Virus record (IMG/VR): IMGVR_UViG_2939142107_000001
Coordinates: 1 to 64,000 of that record
From: a virus
Taxonomy: Duplodnaviria; Heunggongvirae; Uroviricota; Caudoviricetes
DNA length: 64,000 nucleotides
Direction: 5' to 3' (one strand)
Made by a program: the position numbers and the translations under genes
In this document: piece after piece, positions 55,822 to 57,358 of the stretch
Numbering within the stretch: the stretch's first letter is position 1
Layout: each line of letters starts with the position of its first letter
The notes under the pieces: generated by a model
Seen by the model: only the letters and a program-made list of their open reading frames with translations
What the model was told of the DNA's origin: nothing
Databases searched by the model: none

Positions 55822-55838
55822 ATAATTATTAGAGCAAT
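55822..55838 (-). promoter_or_regulatory. C1 operator (immC, Op99 group)
   Basis: ATAATTATTAGAGCAAT matches the consensus at 15/17. Confidence 0.7.
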
Positions 55839-55914
55839 AAATTTTGAGAGAAAAATCCCACTCCACCAGCCAAAAACTGGATTGTTTTTCATAGTTGTTT
55901 GACAATTGCTCTAA

Positions 55915-55931
55915 TAAATTATAGTTTTGCC
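55915..55931 (+). promoter_or_regulatory. C1 operator overlapping a rightward promoter (P99-type)
   Basis: ATTGCTCTAATAAATTA matches the consensus at 16/17. It is preceded by TTGACA and followed by TATAGT/TAGTTT. Confidence 0.75.
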
Positions 55932-56002
55932 GCCGTTTCGTAATACGACTTTGGATTCACTATTTAATGTGTCTTCAGCGTTGTAGAGCGGCTCAGAAGG
56001 AA

Positions 56003-56080
56003 ATGAGCAAACAGGGAAACCTTATACAACGGCATTACAGCTATGCATTGCTCATCTTACACACAGCGCAATGTTGTTAG
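56003..56080 (+). CDS. Possible 25-codon immC leader ORF (imcA/imcB-type)
   Basis: AGAAGGAA RBS, then ATG...TGTTGTTAG. Its stop codon lies within the IS5 target TTAG. Confidence 0.3.
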   Translation: MSKQGNLIQRHYSYALLILHTAQCC

Positions 56081-57275
56081 GGAAGGTGCGAATAAGCGGG
56101 GAAATTCTTCTCGGCTGACTCAGTCATTTCATTTCTTCATGTTTGAGCCGATTTTTTCTCCCGTAAATGCCTTGAATCAGCCTATTTAGACCGTTTCTTC
56201 GCCATTTAAGGCGTTATCCCCAGTTTTTAGTGAGATCTCTCCCACTGACGTATCATTTGGTCCGCCCGAAACAGGTTGGCCAGCGTGAATAACATCGCCA
56301 GTTGGTTATCGTTTTTCAGCAACCCCTTGTATCTGGCTTTCACGAAGCCGAACTGTCGCTTGATGATGCGAAATGGGTGCTCCACCTTGGCCCGGATGCT
56401 GGCTTTCATGTATTCGATGTTGATGGCCGTTTTGTTCTTGCGTGGATGCTGTTTCAAGGTTCTTACCTTGCCGGGGCGCTCGGCGATCAGCCAGTCCACA
56501 TCCACCTCGGCCAGCTCCTCGCGCTGTGGCGCCCCTTGGTAGCCGGCATCGGCTGAGACAAATTGCTCCTCTCCATGCAGCAGATTACCCAGCTGATTGA
56601 GGTCATGCTCGTTGGCCGCGGTGGTGACTAGGCTGTGGGTCAGGCCACTCTTGGCATCGACACCAATGTGGGCCTTCATGCCAAAGTGCCATTGATTGCC
56701 TTTCTTGGTCTGATGCATCTCCGGATCGCGTTGCTGCTCTTTGTTCTTGGTCGAGCTGGGTGCCTCAATGATGGTGGCATCGACCAAGGTGCCTTGAGTC
56801 ATCATGACGCCTGCTTCGGCCAGCCAGCGATTGATGGTCTTGAACAATTGGCGGGCCAGTTGATGCTGCTCCAGCAGGTGGCGGAAATTCATGATGGTGG
56901 TGCGGTCAGGCAAGGCGCTATCCAGGGATAACCGGGCAAACAGACGCATGGAGGCGATTTCGTACAGAGCATCTTCCATCGCGCCATCGCTCAGGTTGTA
57001 CCAATGCTGCATGCAGTGAATGCGTAGCATGGTTTCCAGCGGATAAGGTCGCCGGCCATTACCAGCCTTGGGGTAAAACGGCTCGATGACTTCCACCATG
57101 TTTTGCCATGGCAGAATCTGCTCCATGCGGGACAAGAAAATCTCTTTTCTGGTCTGACGGCGCTTACTGCTGAATTCACTGTCGGCGAAGGTAAGTTGAT
57201 GACTCATGATGAACCCTGTTCCATGGCTCCAGATGACAAACATGATCTCATATCAGGGACTTGTTCGCACCTTCC
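56081..57275 (-). mobile_element. IS5: IS5, complete 1195-bp copy
   Basis: Ends GGAAGGTGCGAATAAG... and ...CTTGTTCGCACCTTCC form 16-bp imperfect inverted repeats. 4-bp direct repeat TTAG at 56077-56080 and 57276-57279. Internal sequence recognised as IS5. Confidence 0.97.
56227..57207 (-). CDS. insH: IS5 transposase InsH
   Basis: [37 protein letters not shown]..., 326 aa. The ORF is open to 57243. Confidence 0.95.
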
Positions 57276-57358
57276 TTAGATTACCCCAGCATGGATCATG
57301 GGTGAAACAGTAGGTCAGAGCTTCAGGCTCTGTGTTGTCAATACAGTGAGGCATAATT

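Follow-up and report, generated by a model that had tools for sequence, protein, structure and literature searches.

A complete copy of the insertion sequence (IS) IS5 interrupts the immC region of the natural P1-like phage-plasmid recorded as IMGVR_UViG_2939142107_000001, of which positions 1 to 64,000 were analyzed (this 64-kb stretch is referred to as the window; it does not include a further ~28 kb of the plasmid). The element sits between imcA and imcB, downstream of the C1-controlled promoter P1coi and upstream of coi, which encodes the C1 inactivator, and of the repressor gene c1. On balance, we consider it probable that a genuine and very recent transposition brought a circulating IS5 variant into the TTAG at the imcA stop codon, and that coi expression is reduced or delayed as a result, with a modest shift toward C1.

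A complete IS5 at the stop codon of imcA

The element occupies 1195 bp on the minus strand (56081-57275), and ends in 16-bp terminal inverted repeats, GGAAGGTGCGAATAAG and GGAAGGTGCGAACAAG, that share 15 of 16 positions. Two copies of TTAG, at 56077-56080 on the left and at 57276-57279 on the right, form a 4-bp target-site duplication that fits the YTAR target rule. The transposase gene ins5A (insH; 56227-57243, minus strand) is intact and encodes 338 amino acids, with a shorter form of 326 residues starting at 57207. Its product matches the IS5-family model NF033581 (E=1.8e-109, 365.5 bits against a cutoff of 140) and the Pfam families DDE_Tnp_1 (PF01609) and DUF772 (PF05598). Five differences in 1195 bp separate the element from the annotated IS5 of phage 434B (99.6% identity), and its identity to reference IS5 exceeds 95%, compared with just 91-92% for the ISKpn26 isoform. 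By its length, repeats, duplication, transposase, and identity, the element qualifies in full as IS5, as the original prediction from the DNA alone had stated.

The sequence is that of a natural variant, five sites apart from the IS5 of K-12. Many E. coli genomes, including clinical ones, have copies that match it at all 1195 positions, and the donor was not traceable among these genomes and the ~46-kb plasmids with identical copies because the variant is too common. The plasmids in question are clinical E. coli plasmids of ~46.1 kb, many of which carry the identical element beside or under an IS30-family transposase annotation, and they show the wide plasmid circulation of this variant. In the window, the right inverted repeat (IRR) end, with the bent region that binds integration host factor (IHF), is oriented toward imcA and P1coi, and the left inverted repeat (IRL), at the 5' end of the transposase gene, is oriented toward imcB and coi.

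All four genes flanking the element are intact. Their annotation was transferred by alignment from the P1 record AF234172, at 99.1-99.4% identity, and agrees with the open reading frames (ORFs) of the window. The imcA gene (55967-56080, plus strand, 37 codons) ends with a TAG at 56078-56080, within the TTAG target site; its product differs from P1 ImcA by one residue and is identical in the empty-site sister plasmid described below. It had been proposed that the insertion preserves a 25-codon leader ORF at 56003-56080, whose stop codon would be supplied by the duplicated TTAG. The ORF is indeed preserved, but it forms the 3' portion of imcA, which is annotated with 37 codons and natively ends in this TAG. 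On the other side, imcB (57298-57393, plus strand, 31 codons, identical to P1 ImcB) begins 18 bp past the duplicated TTAG, sits between IS5 and coi, and overlaps the start of coi. The coi gene (57359-57568, plus strand, 69 amino acids) is 100% identical to P1 Coi, and c1 (57679-58530, plus strand, 283 amino acids) matches NF041318 (phage_rep_C1) over its full length (E=1.4e-183). The 1199 bp of IS5 and duplication therefore break the contiguity of immC between imcA and imcB without truncating any of its genes.

Age and authenticity of the insertion

The survey of related plasmids for the uninterrupted target, which had been suggested along with the original prediction, located it in NZ_CP023896.1, an IncY plasmid of 83,988 bp from E. 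coli FDAARGOS_433, where a single TTAG stands at the insertion point. This plasmid is 100.000% identical to window positions 1-27120, 34109-56080, and 57276-64000. With zero substitutions in ~57 kb between the occupied and the empty plasmid, the insertion is extremely recent.

So young an event raises the question of an artefact, either through misassembly or through transposition while the sequenced isolate was in culture. The perfectly identical flanks in an empty-site plasmid of a reference-collection strain do make a hop in culture conceivable. However, the perfect 4-bp duplication around a complete element with both of its ends points to transposition rather than mis-joining; the element differs from the IS5 of laboratory K-12, which weighs against transposition in such a host; and the same junctions are present in two independent plasmids. 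Together with the existence of the empty-site sister plasmid, these observations speak against the assembly or laboratory artefact that the original prediction had itself raised, and we regard it as very improbable.

The exact left junction gave no matches in the collections of genome contigs and viral contigs. A lone metagenome match was rejected as a chance 23-mer beside an IS5-like repeat; the DNA in which it lies is unrelated and otherwise unlike the window. The sister plasmid lacks a 7-kb block (window 27121-34108) that holds the 3' part of the 1595-amino-acid tail-fiber gene, U, lydA/B, hdf, and darA. No repeat was found at the junction of this gap; the sister plasmid may be a defective prophage that arose by deletion, or its assembly may have collapsed here.

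Recurrent insertions between P1coi and coi

The interval hit by IS5 in the window is a recurrent landing zone for IS elements in P1-like plasmids. We surveyed the contiguity of a 362-bp stretch running from P1coi into coi in PLSDB records and in complete E. coli genomes; the counts refer to records rather than independent events, and the individual events were listed from sampled interrupted records. In PLSDB, 701 records matched, with 562 contiguous and 139 (19.8%) interrupted. The region was carried by 697 of 5426 complete E. coli genomes, contiguous in 565 and interrupted in 132. Neighboring segments of equal length were interrupted at 0.4-3%, in 23 of 703 records for the segment from cra through lox to Oc1e and in 3 of 702 for that from the 3' end of coi through Pc1 to the 5' end of c1. 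A 362-bp control from the non-essential ref gene (53200-53561) was interrupted or replaced in 123 of 651 PLSDB records (19%). The break points of the ref truncations and replacements recur at query positions ~200-261, another plastic spot of the backbone.

Four elements, IS1, ISKpn26, IS5, and ISVsa5, are found at five positions and in both orientations within the 232 bp between P1coi and the start of coi. IS1, flanked by a 9-bp duplication, is present at 56025-56033 in pYLPD4b; D8 p1 carries it too, with additional rearrangement on the left side. The phages phi456 and RCS47 have ISKpn26 at CTAT 56041-56044, oriented as the window IS5, and at least 114 PLSDB records contain the left junction of this insertion; in strain 1332KP, ISKpn26 lies in the opposite orientation at the same TTAG as in the window. 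Two duck plasmids from Sichuan carry IS5 itself at precisely the TTAG used in the window. ISVsa5 lies inside imcB (57323-57334), ~25-36 bp before the ATG of coi, in E2 p1. Nested second insertions, for example IS1 at an ISKpn26 end, are seen in some of the interrupted plasmids. The flanking genes are intact in every sampled IS-bearing relative.

The flanks of the duck plasmids are ~3% diverged outside 55938-57372, the c1 leader of these plasmids is of the other allele, and c1 is followed by a different gene. Their IS5 differs from that of the window at three sites. Because the flanks of the window match the empty-site plasmid, and because the IS sequence, the c1-leader allele, and the backbone all differ, the duck-plasmid IS5 most simply represents an event independent of that in the window, with transfer of a short recombination patch as the less simple alternative. 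Of the 622 YTAR sites in the 64-kb window, this one TTAG was thus the target of IS5-family elements on at least three occasions. Insertions are tolerated in the imcA-imcB leader but not in its neighbors, and the TTAG is a preferred target of the IS5 family.

These data bear on two further readings of the insertion. In the first, which is possible although we give it limited credence, IS5 is a neutral passenger: the leader would be one of the few IS-tolerant stretches, the TTAG a preferred target, and read-through across the element would yield enough Coi for no measurable phenotype to arise. The intact flanking genes of all sampled IS-bearing relatives agree with such neutrality, as do the participation of four different ISs in both orientations and the disruption of ref at a similar frequency. 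The neighboring segments, lox with the cre promoters on one side and Pc1 with c1 on the other, are obviously constrained; phi456 is fully viable, and external transcription can cross IS5. However, a single tetranucleotide struck at least three times among 622 candidate sites, and four IS types in 232 bp, form a cluster that exceeds uniform neutral insertion. A mostly untranslated insert of 1.2 kb also normally exerts some polarity.

In the second reading, which we consider unlikely, the insertions are selected attenuators: by cutting coi from P1coi, they would remove the positive feedback of Coi and make costly spontaneous lysis less frequent, so that lysogens carrying them spread. The contrast between 20% interruption here and 0.4-3% in the adjacent segments speaks for selection, as does the occurrence of at least five independent insertions, made by four ISs and in both orientations, that have no other effect in common than to separate coi from P1coi or to disrupt imcA or imcB. 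On the other hand, the 20% is a count of records without correction for phylogeny in which one ISKpn26 event dominates, the ref control is similarly disrupted, and phi456, called highly spontaneously induced, still induces at 1e-5 to 1e-4. As ref is disrupted as often, we do not claim selection, and positive selection for the insertions is not demonstrated by record counts dominated by a single ISKpn26 insertion. It is equally doubtful that the imcA-imcB leader serves as a host-favored, reversible attenuation site in about one-fifth of natural P1-like plasmids, with infectivity kept.

Low duplex stability, as in AT-rich DNA, was considered as the cause of the hot spot but found no support in a simple stability profile. 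The least stable DNA lies at 55660-55930 (lox, Oc1e, and P1coi), and the insertions cluster at 56025-56080, where stability is average. With the cluster outside the most meltable DNA, an explanation by stress-induced duplex destabilization, as offered for IS5 hot spots in one report (PMC5493358), is unsupported. No paper on IS insertions in immC, or on their ~20% frequency, was found in the searchable literature, and the ISKpn26 of RCS47 was seen in database records only.

Expected consequences for coi and c1

P1coi (former P99d; 55899-55928, plus strand; 99.4% identity to the P1 annotation) is the only reported promoter of coi. In the P1-type arrangement of immC, transcription from it covers imcA, imcB, and coi as a single unit. 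It has the highest promoter score in the region (13.4), with a -35 hexamer TTGACA at 55899-55904 and a -10 region at 55920-55928, and between its hexamers lies the C1 operator Oc1d (55905-55921), with one mismatch to the consensus. IS5 now separates this promoter from coi by 1.46 kb. The distances given in the original prediction proved correct, with the -35 hexamer at its assigned place and the coi ATG, at 57359, 83 bp past the IS5 end, and so did the geometry: a P1coi transcript arrives at imcB, coi, and c1 only after 1.2 kb of IS5, which it traverses antisense to ins5A. Both P1coi and Pc1, the promoter of c1, are repressed by C1 (PMC8546580).

The bivalent operator Oc1ab (57568-57595) overlaps Pc1 (57582-57611, plus strand), which the P1 annotation and the promoter scan both place here and which reads CTATTA-17-TATAAT, with the -10 element at 57606-57611. 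An "operator-like site" at 57568-57584 had been proposed as one of the proximal signals on which c1 would come to depend. The operator is real, although it is the annotated Oc1a half of Oc1ab overlapping Pc1; what c1 would fall back on is the long-known autoregulated c1 promoter unit and not a newly noticed signal.

The promoters of IS5 itself, Pins5A and Pins5CB, are reported to be negligible, and its ins5CB operon runs opposite to ins5A (PMC11677980), which here is the direction from P1coi to coi. Our promoter scan was a position-weight scan of our own and is indicative only; a stricter promoter and terminator scan of 55700-57750 missed even P1coi and Pc1. On the plus strand inside IS5, the position-weight scan found no promoter scoring above ~8, and the best site (56228-56256) is probably Pins5C. 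Nor did it find a strong or consensus-like outward promoter at the coi-proximal end of the element. On the minus strand, a promoter-like hybrid at 57278-57306 (TTCACC-17-TAATCT, score 8.7) spans imcB and the right duplication and points toward ins5A. It could resemble the IS5 fusion promoters described at fucAO.

Judging from this layout, uncoupling of coi from P1coi is plausible. With the insertion, promoter-poor and largely untranslated DNA, 1.2 kb in length, lies between the C1-repressed P1coi and imcB-coi. Production of Coi would then rely on transcripts that read through IS5, sense to the ins5CB operon, and would probably be reduced or delayed rather than abolished. The c1 gene would lose only the contribution of P1coi and continue to be expressed from the autoregulated Pc1/Oc1ab unit. 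A modest shift of the C1:Coi ratio toward C1 may follow, with more lysogeny upon infection and a weaker positive feedback of Coi. The plasmid would still be maintained and lytically competent, and it would keep the ImmI antirepressor route.

Several observations weigh against this account. External transcription is known to traverse IS5, through ins5A at fucAO (PMC11894529) and into ins5CB from an added Ptet (PMC11677980), so that read-through to coi could be substantial, the reduction partial, and the effect small. The known promoter Pc1 scores just 6.9 in our scan, and weak outward promoters are thus possible. Phage phi456, which carries ISKpn26 in imcA, is described with 'high spontaneous induction' and shows no sign of a stabilized prophage (PMC10967188). 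The disruption of ref and the record-based, phylogenetically uncorrected frequency discussed above count on the same side.

The behavior of phi456 also limits how strong the effect can be expected to be. Spontaneous release of this phage was reported at induction rates of 1e-5 to 1e-4 and reached ~1e7 plaque-forming units per ml in biofilm, and its plaques on MC1061 are tiny and blurry (PMC10967188). Since phi456 is inducible and infectious despite its ISKpn26, an IS in the interval from P1coi to coi does not lock the prophage. Knock-downs of coi and of imcB were non-essential for lytic growth of P1vir (PMC10695390). The bias toward stable prophage maintenance that had been proposed for the window is hypothetical, and its nearest analogue, phi456, is not locked.

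It was also considered whether IS5 acts as an activator here, with an outward or hybrid promoter driving imcB-coi, or with its bent end stimulating cra-cre via P4cre in the manner seen at glpFK and flhDC. IS5 is known to activate bglGFB, glpFK, flhDC, and fucAO in E. coli (PMC11894529, PMC11043490, and PMC5493358). The geometry is suggestive in that the end containing the IB region faces the leftward P4cre at a distance of ~260 bp, and the high spontaneous induction reported for phi456 would agree with activation. For coi, however, the activating geometry is absent: IS5 lies downstream of P1coi, the end facing coi is IRL and not the bent IHF-binding end, and between IS5 and coi no promoter is known or predicted, so coi is a poor match for the usual mode of IS5 activation. 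The coi-proximal end lacks a consensus-like outward promoter and the internal promoters of IS5 are reported to be negligible (PMC11677980). Moreover, constitutive Coi would destabilize lysogeny, and the carriers are stably maintained plasmids; ISKpn26 in the opposite orientation at the same TTAG indicates that an orientation-specific activity is not required. We therefore think it very unlikely that IS5 is an activator in this position.

Comparison with related IS insertions

The nearest precedent is ISKpn26 ('IS5D') in phi456 (OR339795) and RCS47 (FO818745), which the annotation of RCS47 shows splitting imcA. It is likewise an IS5-family element with its transposase gene antisense to coi, inserted into the same interval 36 bp upstream of the site in the window and leaving coi and c1 intact. 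In contrast to the window IS5, ISKpn26 is ~91-92% identical to IS5, targets CTAT at 56041-44, and truncates imcA rather than preserving it. The ISKpn26 insertion is also widespread and often rearranged, with nested IS1 and composites, whereas the window IS5 is rare.

The activation of E. coli operons by IS5 shares with the window the same element, YTAR targets, the recurrent use of a regulatory site, and a hot spot common to IS1 and IS5, as at bgl (PMC11043490, PMC5493358). In those cases, IS5 is inserted upstream of a silent promoter and acts via the IB region, by de-repression, or through a CRP-dependent fusion promoter at IRL. The window IS5, in contrast, lies downstream of the active, repressor-controlled P1coi and upstream of coding genes, where polarity or uncoupling would be expected rather than activation.

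P1 mod749::IS5, named in the title of AF234172, is likewise a hop of IS5 from host DNA or a plasmid into a temperate phage that then carried it along. The cI::IS5 allele KH100 of lambda is another insertion of IS5 into a phage gene. Both inactivate a coding gene, whereas the window IS5 keeps every ORF and cuts the operon after its leader ORF. In Klebsiella, mgrB is likewise a short locus struck repeatedly by several IS families, including ISKpn26, according to one report (PMC8796155). The difference is that mgrB has an established selective agent (colistin) and phenotype, and for the immC insertions none is known.

The immC surroundings and the remainder of the window

The surroundings of the insertion are a full P1 immC architecture save for the broken contiguity. 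In P1 (AF234172 / NC_005856), the order is lox, Oc1e, P1coi/Oc1d, imcA, imcB, coi, Oc1c, Oc1ab/Pc1, and c1; the window has the same genes and operators in the same order, from lox/cre and P1coi with its C1 operator through imcA, imcB, and coi to the bivalent operator, Pc1, and c1. Its Coi and ImcB are identical to those of P1, and its C1 is full length. Reference P1 has no IS in immC, with its IS5 in mod and its IS1 between isaA and isaB, whereas the window carries IS5 between imcA and imcB. Upstream of P1coi, the loxP core ATAACTTCGTATAATGTATGCTATACGAAGTTAT (55745-55778) was identified by its sequence and by the lox annotation of AF234172. The operator Oc1e (former Op99e; 55822-55838, minus strand), annotated in P1 and with two mismatches to the consensus ATTGCTCTAATAAATTT, overlaps the -35 of the leftward P4cre, which was matched in the minus-strand promoter scan at 55822-55793 (score 11.2). 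Downstream of c1, pacB lies on the opposite strand.

A long hairpin in the c1 leader (57613-57655, plus strand) is predicted by folding and supported by compensatory pairs between two natural alleles. These alleles (57592-57682) differ at ~20 positions and form the same long hairpin, with five compensatory base-pair changes. The folding prediction also gives an outer helix (~57592-57606 with 57666-57682) that masks the c1 Shine-Dalgarno sequence GGAGGAGGATC by pairing it with GATCC(T/C)TCT, and the Pc1 -10 element (57606-57611) lies between the two paired elements. Given this placement, only transcripts begun upstream, from P1coi, would carry the anti-Shine-Dalgarno strand, and c1 may be poorly translated from them. 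In PLSDB, identity over the coi-c1 segment 57460-57821 is bimodal, with 323 records at ≥99% and 343 at 90-95%, dividing the P1-like plasmids into two immC/c1-leader allele groups of about equal size. Sampled relatives of the second group have ant/icd instead of pacB downstream of c1.

Apart from known variable regions, the window and P1 share their gene order at 96-99% identity, starting at repA and continuing over the tail and head genes, lox-cre, and immC to pacAB. Four segments are without similarity to P1: 1146-3688 (par-proximal), 14481-15856 (sim), 26410-30223 (the tail-fiber variable region), and 50610-52435 (the position of res/mod). The res/mod position holds other genes, among them one that the annotation of the identical sister plasmid calls a YaaC family protein. 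The IS1 that lies between isaA and isaB in P1 is absent from the window (37787-37817).

Implications for P1-like phage-plasmids

A single insertion of this kind is an ordinary event, the hop of an IS into a prophage regulatory region, and the recurrent use of the interval is of more interest. P1-like phage-plasmids are found in ~13% of complete E. coli genomes (697/5426) and spread resistance genes, and shifts in the balance of lysis and lysogeny affect their spread. The window and NZ_CP023896.1 constitute a near-isogenic natural pair with and without IS5, which could reveal how far the expression of Coi and its feedback with C1 depend on physical linkage to P1coi. If IS insertions at this site are selected rather than tolerated, they would represent a common and simple route of prophage attenuation.

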